Positions 1,183-25,122 of a DNA stretch of 29,887 nucleotides are shown piece by piece. The stretch lies in assembly GCA_025459035.1 (NCBI GenBank), contig JALORJ010000006.1, forward strand, positions 1 to 29,887, given 5' to 3'. The notes under the pieces were generated by a model. The model saw only the letters and a program-made list of their open reading frames with translations, did not search any database and had not been told where the DNA came from. Within the stretch, counting starts at the first letter, position 1. Each line of letters starts with the position of its first letter. The translations under genes were made by a program, and so were the position numbers. The stretch comes from Burkholderiales bacterium (GTDB lineage: Bacteria; Pseudomonadota; Gammaproteobacteria; Burkholderiales; Ga0077523).

Positions 1183-6948
<5,766 letters not shown>

Positions 6949-7137
6949 GGGCGGGGCGGGCGCTCGGAAAAAGCGAAGCGCCACGCGAGACGGGCGTGGC
7001 GCGGACGACAGGGTGGGGGGACGAGCTTCGACGCGATCGCGAATCGAGTCCAGCATCGCGAACGCGCCGCCTCATCGACCGTCGAAGCGCCGTCGCGTTC
7101 GCTTCTCCATCCCTTCCTCACGAGCCTTGCCACCGCC

Positions 7138-18813: not shown

Positions 18814-18987
18814 GGCGACCTCGGTCGAAGCGGGGTGTCGAGACCCCGGAGCCTAAAGGAGCGCGTGCCCCGGCGCAGCGACGGCGTGCGCTTGCGACCG
18901 CCTGTCGACGGCGTTGGCGACCGGGCGTCGCCGCAGCGCGACGGCGCGCTGCCACGGGCGCACCGCGCCACAACCTCCGGAGACGCC

Positions 18988-19959
18988 ATGCCCCCGCTGC
19001 CGACCGGCGCGACCCCGCGCCCTGCCACCGATGTCATCGTGCGTGCGCACGGCGACGGACTCGAGCTCGAGCAGCCGCGATCCGGCCGCCGCTTCGTCCT
19101 CGACGCGGCCGACGCCCGACTGTGGCGTGCCCTCGACGGCAGGCGCGGCGTGCAGGCCCTGGCCGCCGACCTTGGCGTATCTGCCGAAAGCCTCTGGCGT
19201 GCGCTCGACGCACTGGCCGATGCGGGCCTGCTCGACGCGCGCGCTGCGCCGCCGACCGGCGGGGCCGTCGCGGGCGGGATGCGGCGGCGGTTCCTGAGCC
19301 GGGCGATGCCGGTGCTGGCGGCGGCGGCGGCCCCGGGGCTTGCGCGCGCTCGCACCAACGGCGACGACGAGGACGACCGCGGTGAGAGCAATTCGAAAAA
19401 AAGCATCGAGAGGAATGACAAGAGAGACGCCGAGGCAAAGGACAAGAGGGACGCCGACGCGATCGACAAGATCGCAGAGAGGGAAGAGAGGGACAGGAAA
19501 CAGCAGGAGCAAGGAGACAAGCAGGCCGCGGCCGCCCCCAAGGAGCAGGGCGACAAGCACGTGGCCGAAGCCCAGGACAAGGGCGAGCGCGAAACCAAGA
19601 CCAGCAACAGCAACGAGCGGATCCGCAAGCAGCTCGAGACGGACGTCAAGGGCGCCGAGACCCGGTTCAAGGAAGCGGGCGGGAAGAACCCGGCCGAACA
19701 GGCCACCAAGAACGCGGCGGAAGCGCTTGCAAGGAACAACGCGACCGAGCAGGCCGCCAAGAACGTCGGGGAACTGATGGGCAAGGGTGGCGGTGGCGGC
19801 GTCGGGCCGGTGATCCCCGAGCCCTCCACGATCGTCGTGCTGGGCCTCGGCATGGCCGGGCTGGCCGCGAAGCGGCTGCGCGCCGACCGTCCTGCCGGGC
19901 CGGTCGGATCGCCCGACGCCGGCGCAGCCACCGAAGACGAGGACCCGACCGCGCCGTGA
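18988..19959 (+). CDS. PEP-CTERM protein with N-terminal PqqD/RRE-like domain, twin-arginine-like segment and ExxxK repeats, 323 aa
   Basis: GGAG RBS. Residues about 11-83 follow a PqqD-like pattern (F.LD...ARLWRALDG..GV..LAADL....LWRAL..LADAGLL). RRRFL plus a hydrophobic stretch ending ARA, 15 ExxxK motifs, then IPEPSTIVVLGLGMAGLAAKRLR. Confidence 0.8.
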   Translation: MPPLPTGATPRPATDVIVRAHGDGLELEQPRSGRRFVLDAADARLWRALDGRRGVQALAADLGVSAESLWRALDALADAGLLDARAAPPTGGAVAGGMRRRFLSRAMPVLAAAAAPGLARARTNGDDEDDRGESNSKKSIERNDKRDAEAKDKRDADAIDKIAEREERDRKQQEQGDKQAAAAPKEQGDKHVAEAQDKGERETKTSNSNERIRKQLETDVKGAETRFKEAGGKNPAEQATKNAAEALARNNATEQAAKNVGELMGKGGGGGVGPVIPEPSTIVVLGLGMAGLAAKRLRADRPAGPVGSPDAGAATEDEDPTAP

Positions 19960-20372
19960 CGTGCTGAACGCGTCGCGGCCGCGTCACGGCGCCGGCCGCG
20001 GCGTCGGGCCGGGGCGGATCGACGGCCCGCGCACAGCGCCCGGGGCGTCGCAGCGGTCGGTGCGCCGGCCGACGAACACGACAGCCAAGGTCGCACGGAT
20101 CCGCGACGCGGCGACGCCGCGCGTCGACGTCCTGTCGCAGTTCCGCGGCTGCGGAGCCCGCACCGTGATTTTCGGCAGTGGCACGCCCGGCCGGCCCTTG
20201 CCCTGAAGCGATCGACAGCTTCCCGTGCGCGGCGCGCTTGTGACCGGTCGATCGTGGCGCTACGGTTCGCGCGACTCGGTTCGGCAGCACAGTGCGGCTG
20301 CGAAACCCCTCGCGCCTCGGAGACCCTCTCTCATGACCCACCGCTCTGCCACGCCTCCGCAGCGCTGCCCGG

Positions 20373-21455
20373 ATGTCGACACCGAGCCTCGTGTGGCGCG
20401 CGCTCGACGTCCTGGCCGACGCCGGCTTGCTCGCGCGACGCGTCGCCCCGCCAGCGGCGGGGACGCGCCGGCATTTCCTGCGACGGGCGCTTCCGGGCCT
20501 CGCGGCCGTGGCGGTTCCAGGCGCGGCGTTCGCGCGCCCGGTGTCCGGCGGCGACGACGGCGGCGGCGGGGACACAGTCGCCGAGGCGCAGGCCAAGGAG
20601 GGCAACGCCAAGGAGCAGTTCGACAAGACCGCCGAGCGCCAGGGCAAGCAGGTCGCCGAGACACAGGCCAAAGGCGAGCAGTCGGCGAAGGCGGGCGAGC
20701 GCGAGGCCAAGATCGCAGCCGAGCGCGACGCGAAGCAGGCGAGCGAGCAGTCGACCAAGGCCGGCGAGCAGGAGGCCAAACAGGGCGTCGAGTCCCAGCG
20801 CAAGGGCGAGGCGTCCGCGAAGGTCGGCGAGCGCGACGCCAAGCAGGCGCAGGAAAAGGACGAGAAGCAGGGCGCGGAGTCTCGGCAGAAGGGAGAGCAG
20901 TCCGCGAAGACCGGCGAGCGCGAGGAGAAGACGGCCGCCGAGCGGGACGCGAAGCAGGCCGAGGAATCGCAGCAGAAGGGCGAGAAGTCCGCGAAGACCG
21001 GCGAGCGCGACGCGAAGCAGGCCGAGGAGTCGCAGCGCAAGGGCGAGCAGTCGGCCAAGGTCGCCGAGCGCGAGGCGAAGACGGCGGCCGAGCGGGACGC
21101 AAAACAGGCCGAGGAGTCGCAGCAGAAGGGCGAACGGTCGGCAAAGGCCGACGAACGCGACTCGAAGACCATGGCGGAGCGGGCGACCAAGACCGGCGAG
21201 ATCGCAGGCAAGGAGGTCACGCAGAAGTCGCCCGCCGAGCAGATCGCGAAGAACACGGGCGAACTGATGAACAAGGGCGACCGCGGTGGCGTCGGTCCGA
21301 TTCCCGAGCCTTCGACCGTGTTGCTGCTCGGGCTGGGCGTCGCCGGGGTCGCGGCGCGTCGGATCCTGGCGGACCGCAAGGCCGCTGACGGCCCGCGGGC
21401 CGCGGACGCCGACGCAGCGGCCGACGGCGACACCCCCACCGGACCGACGCCCTGA
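20373..21455 (+). CDS. Paralogous PEP-CTERM ExxxK-repeat protein with truncated RRE (possibly a frameshifted pseudogene starting at 20333)
   Basis: LVWRALDVLADAGLL, RRHFLRR plus a hydrophobic stretch ending AFA, 33 ExxxK motifs, IPEPSTVLLLGLGVAGVAARR. The RBS-linked ATG at 20333 is in a different frame. Confidence 0.75.
   Translation: MSTPSLVWRALDVLADAGLLARRVAPPAAGTRRHFLRRALPGLAAVAVPGAAFARPVSGGDDGGGGDTVAEAQAKEGNAKEQFDKTAERQGKQVAETQAKGEQSAKAGEREAKIAAERDAKQASEQSTKAGEQEAKQGVESQRKGEASAKVGERDAKQAQEKDEKQGAESRQKGEQSAKTGEREEKTAAERDAKQAEESQQKGEKSAKTGERDAKQAEESQRKGEQSAKVAEREAKTAAERDAKQAEESQQKGERSAKADERDSKTMAERATKTGEIAGKEVTQKSPAEQIAKNTGELMNKGDRGGVGPIPEPSTVLLLGLGVAGVAARRILADRKAADGPRAADADAAADGDTPTGPTP
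20877..21140 (+). repeat. Coding tandem repeat with 87-nt and 63-nt units
   Basis: Units start at 20877, 20964, 21027 and 21114 (spacings 87, 63, 87 nt), each beginning ES(R/Q)(Q/R)KGExSAK. Confidence 0.85.
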
Positions 21456-21554
21456 TGACCTGCGCCGGGCGCGCAGCGCCGGTGGCGATCCCCGTCTCGT
21501 GCGCGGTCAGGCGGCGGGGTCGCGGCCCGCGCGGCCCGCGCTTCGCATGACGCG

Positions 21555-22754
21555 TTGAGCCCCGCGGTCGCCATCCCCGTCGCGCGGCTGGCGGCGACGC
21601 CGCGCTTCGACGTGCTGCCGCCGCTGTCGCTGTACGTCCACATCCCGTGGTGCGTGCGCAAGTGCCCGTACTGCGACTTCAACTCGCACGAGGCACGCGG
21701 CGACGTGCCCGAGGCGCGCTACGTCGACGCGCTGATCGCGGATCTGGAACACGCGCTGCCGCAGGTGTACGGCCGCGAAATCCACACCGTGTTCTTCGGC
21801 GGGGGCACCCCCAGCCTGTTCTCGCCGGAAGCCATCGACCGCTTCCTGTGCGCGGCGCGCGCGCGCCTGCCGATCCGGCCCGATGCCGAGATCACGCTCG
21901 AAGCCAACCCCGGCACGTTCGAGCAGGCGAAGTTCGCGGCCTTCCGCGCGGCCGGCATCGACCGGCTGTCGATCGGGATCCAGAGCTTCGACGCGCGCCA
22001 CCTTGCGGCGCTGGGGCGCGTGCACGATGCGGCGCAGGCCCACCGCGCCGTCGAGATCGCGGAGCGCAGCTTCGACAACTTCAACCTCGACCTGATGTAT
22101 GCGCTGCCCGGGCAGACCCCGGACGAAGCCGCCGCCGACGTCGCGACCGCGGTCGCCACCGGCGCGCCGCATCTGTCGCTGTACCACCTGACGCTCGAAC
22201 CGAACACGCTGTTCCACAAGCGCCCGCCGCCCGGGCTGCCGGACGACGACGCGGCGGCGTCGATGCAGGACGCGCTGGAGGCCACACTGGCGGCGGCCGG
22301 CTATCGACACTACGAGACCTCTGCGTTCGCCCGGCCGGGGCGCGAGTGCCGTCACAACCTCGGTTACTGGACCTTCGGTGACTACCTCGGGATCGGCGCC
22401 GGAGCGCACGGCAAGGTGTCGCAGCGCGAGCGCATCGTGCGCGAGATGCGCTGGAAGCATCCGCGCGAGTACGTCGAGCGCACGCTCGCCGGAGAACCGG
22501 TGCAGACGACGCACGATGTCGCGGTCGCCGACCTGCCGTTCGAGTTCCTGATGAACGCGCTGCGCCTGGTCGACGGTGTCGACGCGACCCTCTACGCGGC
22601 GCGCTGCGGCATGCCGATGCCCGCGGCCGTGCGGGCGACGCTCGATGCCGCCGAGGCGCGCGGCCTGCTGACGCGGGATCATCTGCGGCTCGGCCCGACG
22701 GCGCTGGGTCGGCGCTTTCTCAACGATCTGCTGGAGATGTTCCTCGACGCCTGA
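21555..22754 (+). CDS. hemW: Radical SAM heme chaperone HemW (HemN-like)
   Basis: LSLYVHIPWCVRKCPYCDFNSH (CxxxCxxC), FFGGGTPS, EITLEANPG, RLSIGIQSF and HNLGYW. TTG start is tentative. Confidence 0.9.
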   Translation: MSPAVAIPVARLAATPRFDVLPPLSLYVHIPWCVRKCPYCDFNSHEARGDVPEARYVDALIADLEHALPQVYGREIHTVFFGGGTPSLFSPEAIDRFLCAARARLPIRPDAEITLEANPGTFEQAKFAAFRAAGIDRLSIGIQSFDARHLAALGRVHDAAQAHRAVEIAERSFDNFNLDLMYALPGQTPDEAAADVATAVATGAPHLSLYHLTLEPNTLFHKRPPPGLPDDDAAASMQDALEATLAAAGYRHYETSAFARPGRECRHNLGYWTFGDYLGIGAGAHGKVSQRERIVREMRWKHPREYVERTLAGEPVQTTHDVAVADLPFEFLMNALRLVDGVDATLYAARCGMPMPAAVRATLDAAEARGLLTRDHLRLGPTALGRRFLNDLLEMFLDA

Positions 22755-22849: not shown

Positions 22850-23431
22850 TTACGCGGCCTTGCGCCGGCGCGCGATCGCGCCGACACCGACCAGACCCAG
22901 CGCCATCAACGCGTAGGTCGACGGCTCCGGCACGGCCTGCGTGAAGACGCGGACGTGGTCGCCCGGATCCGACGCGACCCACTTGAACGTCAGCACGTTG
23001 CCGACGAACGACGCCGAGTCGGGGCCGGGTCGGCGCGCGGTGCCCAGTTCGAGGCCGGTCAGGTTGTCGCTCAGGTACGAGACCAGCGGGTTGCCCCAGG
23101 TCGCGTTGCCGGCGAGCACCGCGGCGGTGGTCTTGTCCAGACCGATGATCGGCAGGTCGAACGTGATCGTGCCGGTCGCCGGGTCGCTGCCCTTCGGGTC
23201 GAAGAAGATCAGCCACGACTGCACGTTGCCGATCTGCTTCTCCTTGATGAAGTACATCGCGTCGTTGTCGACCTTGCCGTCACCGACGCCGACGCCGTTG
23301 GCGAAGTCGGTGGTGGTGAGGTAGTCGCTGAACGACCAGCCCTGGACGATCGAGGCGACCGGGTCGGCGGCCAGCGCGGGCGTGGAGAGCGCGGCGGCCG
23401 TGAGTGCGGCGGACAGCAGGGACAGCTTCAT
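22850..23431 (-). CDS. PEP-CTERM sorting-domain protein, 193 aa
   Basis: AAGGAG RBS, Sec-type signal MKLSLLSAALTAAALSTPALA, C-terminal VPEPSTYALMALGLVGVGAIARRRKAA. Confidence 0.92.
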   Translation of the reverse strand: MKLSLLSAALTAAALSTPALAADPVASIVQGWSFSDYLTTTDFANGVGVGDGKVDNDAMYFIKEKQIGNVQSWLIFFDPKGSDPATGTITFDLPIIGLDKTTAAVLAGNATWGNPLVSYLSDNLTGLELGTARRPGPDSASFVGNVLTFKWVASDPGDHVRVFTQAVPEPSTYALMALGLVGVGAIARRRKAA

Positions 23432-23676: not shown

Positions 23677-25122
23677 CTAGCCGGCGCGGTAGAAGAACTG
23701 CGCGAGCACGGTCTTGTGCCCGCGCTGCACGTCGACCGACAGATGATCGGCGTGCGTGTCGGGGCTGCCGTCGTCGAGGTAGTTGAACCACCACACCAGC
23801 GTGCCCGCCCGCGGGGCGACGTCGACCGGGGCGGGCCGGGCGTTCGGAAAGCGGGTCTCGCCGCCCGCCTCGGGCGTCTCGAGGTAGAGCAGCGCGGTCG
23901 CCACCAGCCGATGGCCGTCGATCACGTACTGGTCGCCATGCAGTGGATGCCCGTCGCCGGGCGCGTAGCGGCGTAGCCGCAGCGTGGTTCCGAGCGCGTT
24001 GTCGACGCCGACGACCTGCGCCATCCCGGCCGCGATGTCGGCCAGTCGCGCGTCGTGGGCCAGCGGCAGTTCGGCATGCAATCCGGTGCGGTCGCGCGCC
24101 CATTCGATGCCGGCGGAGTCGAGCGCCTCGGGCCGTGCGAGTGCTGCCAGCGCAGCGCATTCGTCGGCGCCGCGCCAGTCGACGAGCTGGCGCAACCGCG
24201 GGCGCTCGCACAGTGCTTCACCGAGCGTCGATGGCGGTGGCAACGCCGCAGGCGCCACCGGCGCCGCGGCACCGAGCCGCACCGCCTTGTCGATCAGATG
24301 GTCGACCATCGCCTGCGACACCGGCACGCCGCCGACGGTCTCGGCGTGCGCGTGGTACAGCGGGAAGTTCGACTCGAGCAGGTAGACGCGCCCGCTCTCG
24401 TGGACCAGCAGGTCGACACCGCCCAGCTCCAGGCGCTGCACTTGCACGGCCGCGATCGCGACCTCGGCCAGCTCGGGCGGCACGTCGGCCGTGACTTCGC
24501 CGGGGTCGCTCGTACCCGAGGTGCGGAAGTCGCCGTCGTCCACCGGATTGACGTAGCCGGCGACGGCGCGGTCGCCGACCACCACCACGCGCCAGTGCAC
24601 AGCGGGCGCCACCATCGCCATCACGCGCGCGAACGGGTGATTGGCCTGCAGGAAGTCGACCAGCGACCGCAGCGCGCCCAGGCTGTCGGCGCGCATCACG
24701 CCGATCCCGCGTGACGATCCGGGCACCTTCACCACGACCGGCAGCCCGCCCAGATGCTCGATCAGGTCGGGCAGGTCGGCGTGGGCGAGCCCGGCGACCT
24801 CGACGCTGCGTGGCACCGGCAGTCCGGCCTGCTCGAAGCGCAGTTGCGCGTTCGCGCACGGGAAGAATGGGCCGTCGGGGTCGCCGTGGAAGGTGGCGAC
24901 GCCGGGCACCCAGAGCTGTTGCTCGAGGCGGGTGCAGGCATACGAGATGCCGGGCTTGTAGAGCAGATCGCCCGGTGCGCATGCGGTCTCCGGCGGCGCG
25001 CCGTCGGGCCGGCGGGTCCGCCCGTCGTGCACGACCGTGGCGACGCCGCGGCGTGCCGCGGCGGCCGTCAGCAGCGCGATCGTCTCGCGCGGGACGCCGT
25101 CTTCGACGAGATGCAGCTTCAT
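23677..25122 (-). CDS. Fusion of a RimK-like ATP-grasp ligase and a prolyl-4-hydroxylase-like 2OG-Fe(II) oxygenase, 481 aa
   Basis: N-part has [33 protein letters not shown] and LLESN. C-part has LRRYAPG..HPLHGD (HxD), TALLYL, GGETRFP, ADH and GHKTVL. The ATG overlaps the trmB stop (ATGA). Confidence 0.78.

Follow-up and report, generated by a model that had tools for sequence, protein, structure and literature searches.

Why would a bacterial surface protein carry a recognition domain of the kind that serves peptide maturation, and which enzyme would act on it? The question is raised by a gene of a Burkholderiales bacterium (GTDB Ga0077523; GenBank assembly GCA_025459035.1), here termed copy 1 (P0001; 18988..19959, + strand; 323 aa). 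It lies on contig JALORJ010000006.1 in a stretch of 29,887 nucleotides, the whole of which was analysed and is referred to as the window. A preliminary description, made from the sequence without database searches, had divided the gene product into four parts: an N-terminal domain resembling PqqD and the recognition elements (RREs) of RiPPs (peptides made by the ribosome and modified after translation), an internal arginine-rich hydrophobic segment, a region crowded with E-x-x-x-K (ExxxK) motifs, and a PEP-CTERM anchor. This four-part build was confirmed at the same coordinates, with an acidic tail at its end: copy 1 is a predicted surface-bound protein in which a peptide-recognition domain of its own and an export signal precede the ExxxK motifs. 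As its relatives adjoin one ATP-grasp/oxygenase enzyme in many phyla, cross-linking of the motifs before export is probable. We lean towards reading P0001 as the protein-sized substrate of a two-gene cassette, with the enzyme encoded at 23677-25122 (-) as its partner, that would undergo stapling, hydroxylation, export by the twin-arginine translocation (Tat) pathway, cleavage and sorting by exosortase. The whole analysis was computational.

The window is GC-rich and contains many spurious long frames. The frame of copy 1 is supported by homology, as the family profile aligns over residues 4-119, and GGAGA is found five bases 5' of its ATG start codon. Searches of Pfam, NCBIfam and the literature returned no described family with the architecture of copy 1, none having been known to the author of the preliminary description either, and no paper on this enzyme-substrate family.

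A predicted RRE fold at the N-terminus

PF05402 (PqqD) matched the N-terminal domain of copy 1 (residues ~11-85; 19018..19242, +) below its gathering cut-off (E 0.11; 13.3 bits, cut-off 23.4), and the weak NCBIfam matches of the domain were to RRE-bearing proteins, namely the daptide protease N-terminus, ApyI and ScmD. An alignment of the N-termini of 70 family members formed the basis for both a profile search of the PDB and an AlphaFold2 model. The profile search ranked PqqD, TbiB1 and TfuB1 at the top (E 3e-3 to 0.12), PqqD chains being reached at E 3e-3 and no better. The model consisted of three strands followed by three helices, with predicted local distance difference test (pLDDT) values of 94-98 for residues 11-80 and of about 97 for the domain taken together; DSSP assigned the strands to residues 17-21, 24-29 and 34-38, and the helices to residues 40-48, 55-62 and 66-78. 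When the model was compared to the PDB with Foldseek, the top eight matches comprised TbiB1, TfuB1, PqqD and the PbtF RRE (target-normalised template modelling scores 0.59-0.75), the best being TbiB1 with leader peptide (E 6.5e-5, 27-29% identity), and the RRE domains of LynD, SuiB, CteB and MccB ranked after PbtF. The AlphaFold2 model and the first ranks taken by RREs in Foldseek together confirm the predicted RRE fold of copy 1. The resemblance to PqqD and RREs in the preliminary description was thereby borne out; modelling of the N-terminus, which it had proposed as a check, gave a PqqD-type winged helix-turn-helix (HTH) in RRE order and not the mismatch it had allowed for.

Directly past helix 3 lies a conserved R-x-x-P-P segment (19240..19254, +). 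It is part of the most conserved stretch of the family, G-L-L-x-x-R-x-x-P-P, in which P88 and P89 are invariant and R85 nearly so in the 70-sequence alignment; residues 82-84, ahead of R-x-x-P-P, form a short strand in the model as assigned by DSSP.

RREs deliver precursor leaders to RiPP-modifying enzymes. The discrete lasso-pathway RREs TbiB1 and TfuB1, as well as PqqD, share the predicted fold of copy 1 at 19-29% identity. Known RREs are, however, either separate proteins or fused to enzymes and bind the precursor leader, whereas the RRE of copy 1 is situated within the presumed substrate itself, ahead of the signal peptide.

Homologues are paired with one ATP-grasp enzyme across phyla

A word-indexed search with copy 1, a query of low complexity, found one relative only. 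An exhaustive HMMER search with residues 1-125 (E<=1e-3) yielded 175 representative proteins (clusters) from several phyla. On all seven long contigs with ExxxK-type homologues, the next gene downstream, in convergent orientation, encodes a RimK-type ATP-grasp enzyme, and on six of the seven a 2-oxoglutarate (2OG) oxygenase of PF13640 is either fused or adjacent to it. The oxygenase is fused to the ATP-grasp in Viridibacterium curvum and adjacent in Psychrosphaera, while Nannocystis pusilla has the ATP-grasp alone, with no oxygenase; among the four metagenome contigs, it is fused in three and adjacent in one. Since, over the 54 enzyme loci described below, the oxygenase mostly lies N-terminal to the ligase, and C-terminal to it in the window and in Viridibacterium, fusion has occurred in both orders.

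The pairing was also recovered in the reverse direction. A search with an alignment of five ligases, using one genome per species, gave 54 loci from Myxococcota, Acidobacteriota, Alpha-, Beta- and Gammaproteobacteria, Planctomycetota, Binatia and others, and in 38 of these an RRE gene was detected with the N-domain profile ~2.5 kb or less from the ligase. Contig ends truncate three more loci, an ExxxK-repeat open reading frame (ORF) with no RRE is present in one, and in two a Tat signal is combined with a few motifs and a globular end. Clustering of all ORFs around the 54 enzyme loci revealed no other conserved neighbour. The search for conserved enzymes next to homologues, as suggested in the preliminary description, thus led to a single ATP-grasp enzyme, with the pairing seen in both directions, and the lack of a co-occurring enzyme that would have counted against the earlier idea was not observed. 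The arrangement by which graspetides are recognised, a precursor beside an ATP-grasp ligase with conserved acid and Lys/Ser/Thr partners, is found in this family as well.

Some loci depart from the common pattern. In L051, an ExxxK/QQQE-rich ORF (1119-1997, +) with 14 motifs and neither an RRE nor a twin-arginine (RR) signal adjoins a fused oxygenase-ligase gene, which suggests that the enzyme is constantly partnered by the repeat rather than by the RRE. A 12-kb locus of a Myxococcota metagenome-assembled genome (MAG; L059) has three RRE-bearing substrate genes and two ligase genes.

A sister branch (P0033, P0048, P0059, P0069, P0091, P0099, P0126 and P0141; L072-L074) has the same RRE and RR signal followed by a Cys-rich C-terminal part with 7-30 Cys, often as CCCC. 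Its neighbours encode a PF14907 nucleotidyltransferase, a MauE/thioredoxin protein or a methyltransferase. As these relatives have other neighbours and no ATP-grasp, the ATP-grasp link is specific to the ExxxK branch, and the RRE-plus-signal module may serve several maturation systems.

The ExxxK array

The array of copy 1 (residues 133-266; 19384..19785, +) holds 15 ExxxK motifs and is predicted to be mostly helical. The 134-aa region and its 15 motifs, as first described, withstood a statistical check: shuffled sequences contained 2.6 motifs on average, none of 20,000 shuffles reached 15, and E-to-K spacings other than ExxxK were at background level. Motif and signal statistics were then collected over 94 array-bearing family members, cluster copies included. 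Glu is found at position -4 of 979 of the 1306 array lysines (75%) and Asp at 35, and the residue at +4 of Glu is Lys in 979 cases and Arg in 56. The inner positions are variable, with Gln favoured at +1, the spacing of the units is irregular (5, 7, 8, 9, 11 or more residues), and some members have Gly-rich units, e.g. EDGGK and EHGNK, that do not favour helix.

In the full-length model, the array forms long helices at moderate confidence; residues i and i+4 of an array predicted to be helical would share one face. Salt bridges between Glu(i) and Lys(i+4) are a stabilising feature of single helices. A salt-bridged helix would accept Arg and Asp, however, and the array hardly does, which points to chemistry that requires a primary amine and a carboxylate as long as that of Glu. 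The free interchange of Arg with Lys and of Asp with Glu that characterises ER/K single alpha-helices is not seen in the family array.

The predicted modifying enzyme

A PF08443 search of the source genome located the enzyme of the window, a predicted modifying enzyme of 481 aa (23677..25122, -) in which a RimK-type ATP-grasp domain is fused to a 2OG-Fe(II) oxygenase, both scoring above cut-off (PF08443, 55.3 bits; PF13640, 28.9 bits, cut-off 27). Catalytic residues are kept in both domains. The ATP-grasp domain (residues ~1-285; 24268..25122, -) has the ATP- and metal-binding set of a ligase, with Lys132, Asp237, Glu250 and Asn252 conserved, and the oxygenase domain (residues ~300-481; 23680..24225, -) has HxD...H...K, in the form of H395-x-D397, H461 and K470.

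The closest PDB entries by sequence were RimK for the ligase (5zct, 4iwx; E 5e-16) and prolyl 4-hydroxylases for the oxygenase. The ligase scored 54.3 bits with the RimK model TIGR00768 (cut-off 143.4) and 58.3 with PRK10446 (cut-off 331), so that only the broad PF08443 passes, and 30.9 bits with the graspetide maturase model TIGR04187 (cut-off 350). With all NCBIfam matches (rimK_fam, LysX, TIGR04187) far under cut-off, the ligase represents a separate clade. A Myxococcota oxygenase matches the oxygenase domain at 36% identity (E 2e-27), and its gene overlaps the start of a ligase gene of the TIGR04187 type; this type of oxygenase thus also partners with classical graspetide synthetases.

Export signal and surface anchor

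The RRRFL-hydrophobic-ARA segment reported in the preliminary description is present, and from the consensus and AxA counts of the 94 members it is better read as a Tat-type signal (residues 98-121; 19279..19350, +) composed of M-RRRFL-S-R, an Ala-rich hydrophobic stretch and A119-R-A121. Tat signal peptides are marked by a twin-Arg motif (S/T-R-R-x-F-L-K), a mildly hydrophobic stretch and AxA. In the 70-sequence alignment, R99 and R100 are close to invariant, and the 94 members have the consensus S-R-R-x-[LF]-L-R and an uncharged run with a median of 19.5 residues and modest hydrophobicity, with AxA 12-40 residues on in 88 of them. The signal begins at residue 98, past a folded 95-residue domain, and not at the N-terminus. 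The Tat pathway takes proteins that were folded or modified beforehand in the cytoplasm, and the lack of a conserved protease or exporter gene beside the cassette fits the use of general export machinery.

The PEP-CTERM sorting domain (residues 276-298; 19813..19881, +) scored above the cut-offs of both PF07589 (24.1 bits, cut-off 20.7) and TIGR02595 (19.6 bits, cut-off 16), and an EpsH exosortase was found in the source genome (199.6 bits); the anchor assigned from the sequence alone is hence upheld. The basic cluster is followed by an acidic, Pro-rich tail of 25 residues (19882..19956, +). The tail recurs among the PEP-CTERM members of the family and is unusual for PEP-CTERM proteins. A regular-expression count found a PEP motif near the C-terminus in ~17 of 151 family proteins, and the anchor is therefore a lineage-specific addition. 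Copy 1 has the PEP motif, membrane helix, basic cluster and genomic exosortase in common with PEP-CTERM/exosortase proteins such as the floc protein PepA. Typical proteins of this kind have an N-terminal Sec signal and end right at the basic cluster, whereas copy 1 has its Tat-type signal behind a folded domain and continues into the acidic tail.

Comparison with corallotide and microviridins

The closest known system is corallotide (CorA, CorB, CorC; graspetide group 15) from Corallococcus exercitus (Carter et al., ACS Chem Biol 2026, PMC13097080). The 22-kDa precursor of corallotide combines a folded N-terminal domain with five KxxxD units, in each of which the ATP-grasp CorB makes a Lys-Asp i,i+4 isopeptide; the PF13640 oxygenase CorC afterwards hydroxylates C5 of the cross-linked lysine (PMC13097080). 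CorB requires CorC and binds it, the CorA leader domain binds the enzymes, and the cluster is reported in Corallococcus only (PMC13097080). PF08443, PF05402 and PF07589 are not listed in the co-occurrence tables of that paper, and three accessions of the copy 1 family are absent from the examined part of its data (PMC13097080).

Both systems have a large precursor with a folded N-terminal leader domain, repeated five-residue acid/Lys units with i,i+4 geometry, and an ATP-grasp together with a PF13640 2OG oxygenase, the two being in complex in corallotide and fused in the window. The corallotide motif is KxxxD, with Lys first and Asp as the acid, whereas the units of the copy 1 family are ExxxK, with Glu first, and do not conform to KxxxD. 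CorB is a TIGR04187-type graspetide synthetase and the ligase of the window is of RimK type. Furthermore, the CorA leader is helical and not an RRE, corallotide has neither a Tat signal nor PEP-CTERM, its repeats number five as opposed to 15-43 in the copy 1 family, and its occurrence in Corallococcus only differs from the spread over many phyla seen here. The best explanation is that the copy 1 cassette would be analogous to corallotide yet evolutionarily distinct.

The beta-lactamase partner of corallotide, CorD, is not conserved in the copy 1 family; a CorD-like partner was considered and set aside, with a PF00144-family gene near the cassette in two to three loci only (L109:1580-2764 (+), L032 and L014). 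Among 400 Myxococcota genomes, the corallotide cluster was not found; the search gave only one pair of 2OG oxygenase and TIGR04187 ligase with its genes ordered differently (L106), and a K/D-repeat precursor of an unrelated kind (L107). In L106 (6795-8475, +), a homologous 2OG oxygenase of 234 aa is encoded by a gene that overlaps with the beginning of a TIGR04187-type ATP-grasp gene, with no repeat precursor recognised nearby. In L107 (5206-6477, +), a frame of repeated K-x-L-K-[DE]-V-x-L-D-G-P units continues into an ATP-grasp-like region; precursor and ligase may be fused there, or a GC-rich frame may run through two separate genes.

Microviridin-type graspetides (MdnB/MvdC) resemble what is proposed for the copy 1 family in that an ATP-grasp enzyme forms a side-chain Lys-Glu/Asp lactam in a ribosomal precursor. 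They are, however, small peptides whose short linear leaders are bound directly by the ligase, with no RRE, oxygenase, Tat signal or PEP-CTERM signal. The ligase family also differs, the MvdD model giving E 1e-3 for one relative and no match for the enzyme of the window.

Proposed maturation and alternative explanations

The preliminary description had envisaged copy 1 as a precursor modified at its ExxxK motifs, for instance by Glu-Lys isopeptide stapling, with the RRE as a self-chaperone, and then exported and anchored. What the analysis shows is the build of the domains, the motif counts and the conserved pairing of enzyme and substrate genes, and these support an ExxxK-modified, exported and anchored precursor; for the chemistry, the part played by the RRE, the order of steps, Tat export, the cleavage and the biological role, we infer the following course. 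In the cytoplasm, the RRE-fold domain would act as an in-cis leader domain of the substrate and recruit the enzyme. The ATP-grasp would activate the Glu side chain of each ExxxK and join it to the Lys at i+4, giving one small macrolactam (isopeptide staple) per unit, a proposal supported by the cross-linking of KxxxD in corallotide as a close experimental precedent. The 2OG oxygenase would next hydroxylate the cross-linked unit, most likely at the lysine. The modified protein would then leave by the Tat pathway via its internal RRxFL signal, signal peptidase would cleave past AxA and take off both RRE and signal, and the exosortase of the genome would process the PEP-CTERM end, so that a stapled helical protein resistant to proteases would remain at the cell surface or in the matrix.

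Several points weigh against this course. The ligase falls outside the graspetide-synthetase clade and within the RimK clade, the characterised members of which add free amino acids to protein carboxylates, and the type of bond is proposed by analogy to corallotide. An oxygenase, fused or adjacent, was detected in ~30 of the 54 enzyme loci, and about half are without a detectable one. In the window, the enzyme gene is not adjacent to its presumed substrate, being 2.2 kb off, past hemW and another gene. A second substrate copy in the window (copy 2) is mostly without the RRE and some other loci have RRE-less substrates, so that either the RRE is not strictly required or such copies go unmodified. 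To our knowledge, a Tat signal 97 residues into a protein is without precedent, and TatC was not found in the source MAG, which is 79% complete; four of four near-complete congeners have TatC.

The main rival retains the same enzyme-substrate pair and assumes a chemistry like that of RimK and LysX, in which a free amino acid, e.g. glutamate, would be ligated onto the motif Glu to give a branched or glutamylated product, with the Lys as a recognition site or a separate hydroxylation site. It draws on the best matches of the ligase being to RimK structures, rimK_fam and LysX, with a much weaker match to the graspetide maturase, and on the known action of RimK and LysX on Glu carboxylates of proteins, to which they do add amino acids. 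These enzymes add free amino acids at a C-terminal Glu, however, whereas copy 1 has its motif repeated in the interior of the chain; the ligase also carries a fused oxygenase, and no RimK or LysX model scores it above cut-off. Two reacting partners would suit the strict i,i+4 pairing of Glu and Lys, with Arg and Asp nearly excluded, better than a recognition motif would, and the sole characterised pairing of an ATP-grasp with PF13640 on a repeat protein yields i,i+4 lactams (PMC13097080). Amino-acid addition is accordingly considered unlikely.

It would be much less probable still that the array is a mere salt-bridged, charged helical stalk or hydrophilic spacer and that the neighbouring enzyme has another target. 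Such a role would suit the predicted helicity of the array, the stabilising effect of Glu-Lys bridges and the distance of the enzyme in the window, but it leaves the gene pairing conserved across phyla in both search directions unaccounted for. Salt-bridged helices also use Arg and Asp freely, while the family has ratios of 979:56 for Lys to Arg and 979:35 for Glu to Asp, and the Gly-rich units and irregular unit spacing argue further against a stalk.

Least probable of all is that the N-terminal domain is the DNA-binding winged helix of a membrane-tethered regulator or anti-sigma-like sensor, in which the RR segment would stay uncleaved as an anchor and the array would act as a sensor in the periplasm. 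Weak Pfam matches to the HTH models of GntR, Crp and AsnC (E 0.003 to 0.09) and the layout of cytoplasmic N-domain, membrane segment and outer region recall such proteins. Over its whole length, however, the domain is matched best by RRE structures, Lrp/AsnC-type regulators align over no more than 45-55 columns (E ~0.2 or worse), the strands precede the helices as in RREs, AxA lies past the hydrophobic stretch in 88 of the 94 members, and the conserved partner is an enzyme and not a sigma factor or target operon.

Copy 2 and the history of the locus

Copy 2 (20373..21455, +; 360 aa) is a tandem paralogue of copy 1 comprising the last RRE helix, an RRHFL signal, 33 ExxxK motifs (5.7 expected from shuffles) and PEP-CTERM. 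DNA homology between the two copies begins at the last RRE helix, at ~20388. Within the region 20300-20440, a ribosome-binding site and ATG at 20334 are out of the protein frame, and the in-frame ATG at 20373 is without a clear ribosome-binding site. Copy 2 may hence be a damaged or impaired duplicate, or depend on copy 1.

In congeners, hemW and trmB are neighbours, with 29 bp between them in one contig (G014:C47). Because the congeners keep the two genes adjacent, the segment 22755-25118 is regarded as an insertion downstream of trmB, and it contains the gene of the enzyme and that of an ordinary PEP-CTERM protein with a Sec-type signal (22850..23431, -; 193 aa). The latter, which shares the 2.4-kb insertion with the enzyme, may be only a passenger. 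The enzyme start overlaps the trmB stop codon (ATGA), and the gene therefore probably rides on the trmB transcript. HemW itself was considered as the maturase and rejected, as it is encoded by a housekeeping gene that adjoins trmB in congeners. The segment with both substrate copies (18815-21577) has no counterpart in four congeners and lies at a synteny break, with hemW between it and the first insertion. Searched with the N-domain profile, 60 relatives (24 congeners and 36 other genomes of the order) yielded no true homologue and four weak matches in 700-900-aa frames of another kind, and the ATP-grasp/oxygenase enzyme was likewise not found in these 24 and 36 genomes. Substrates and enzyme were gained together in the source lineage and are now parted by hemW.

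Elsewhere in the window, an ORF of 1957 aa (1183-7056, -) encodes UvrA interaction and DNA-binding domains and several ABC (ATP-binding cassette) ATPase modules, at about twice the normal length of UvrA.

Implications for secreted proteins

A wider proposal is offered more tentatively. The family could possibly represent a new multi-phylum class of ribosomal "stapled proteins", in which the RRE resides on the substrate and not on the enzyme, a RimK-clade ATP-grasp fused or paired with a 2OG oxygenase installs tens of (hydroxy)Glu-Lys lactams along a helical array, and Tat and signal peptidase take the place of the dedicated protease and exporter known from classical RiPP pathways. If this is true, side-chain lactam stapling, known so far from small graspetides and one Corallococcus protein, would extend to entire proteins secreted by Myxococcota, Acidobacteriota, Proteobacteria, Planctomycetota and other phyla. 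Copy 1 and its relatives would then carry the first substrate-borne RRE, link RiPP-type maturation to Tat export and exosortase sorting, and reveal a RimK-clade enzyme with a new reaction. They would also offer a natural, genetically encoded path to multiply stapled helices, which would be of interest for protein engineering. For the organisms themselves, the cassette would supply the extracellular matrix or cell surface with proteins that are covalently stiffened, and it would give a role to proteins now labelled "hypothetical" or "PEP-CTERM", which may matter for floc and biofilm matrices.

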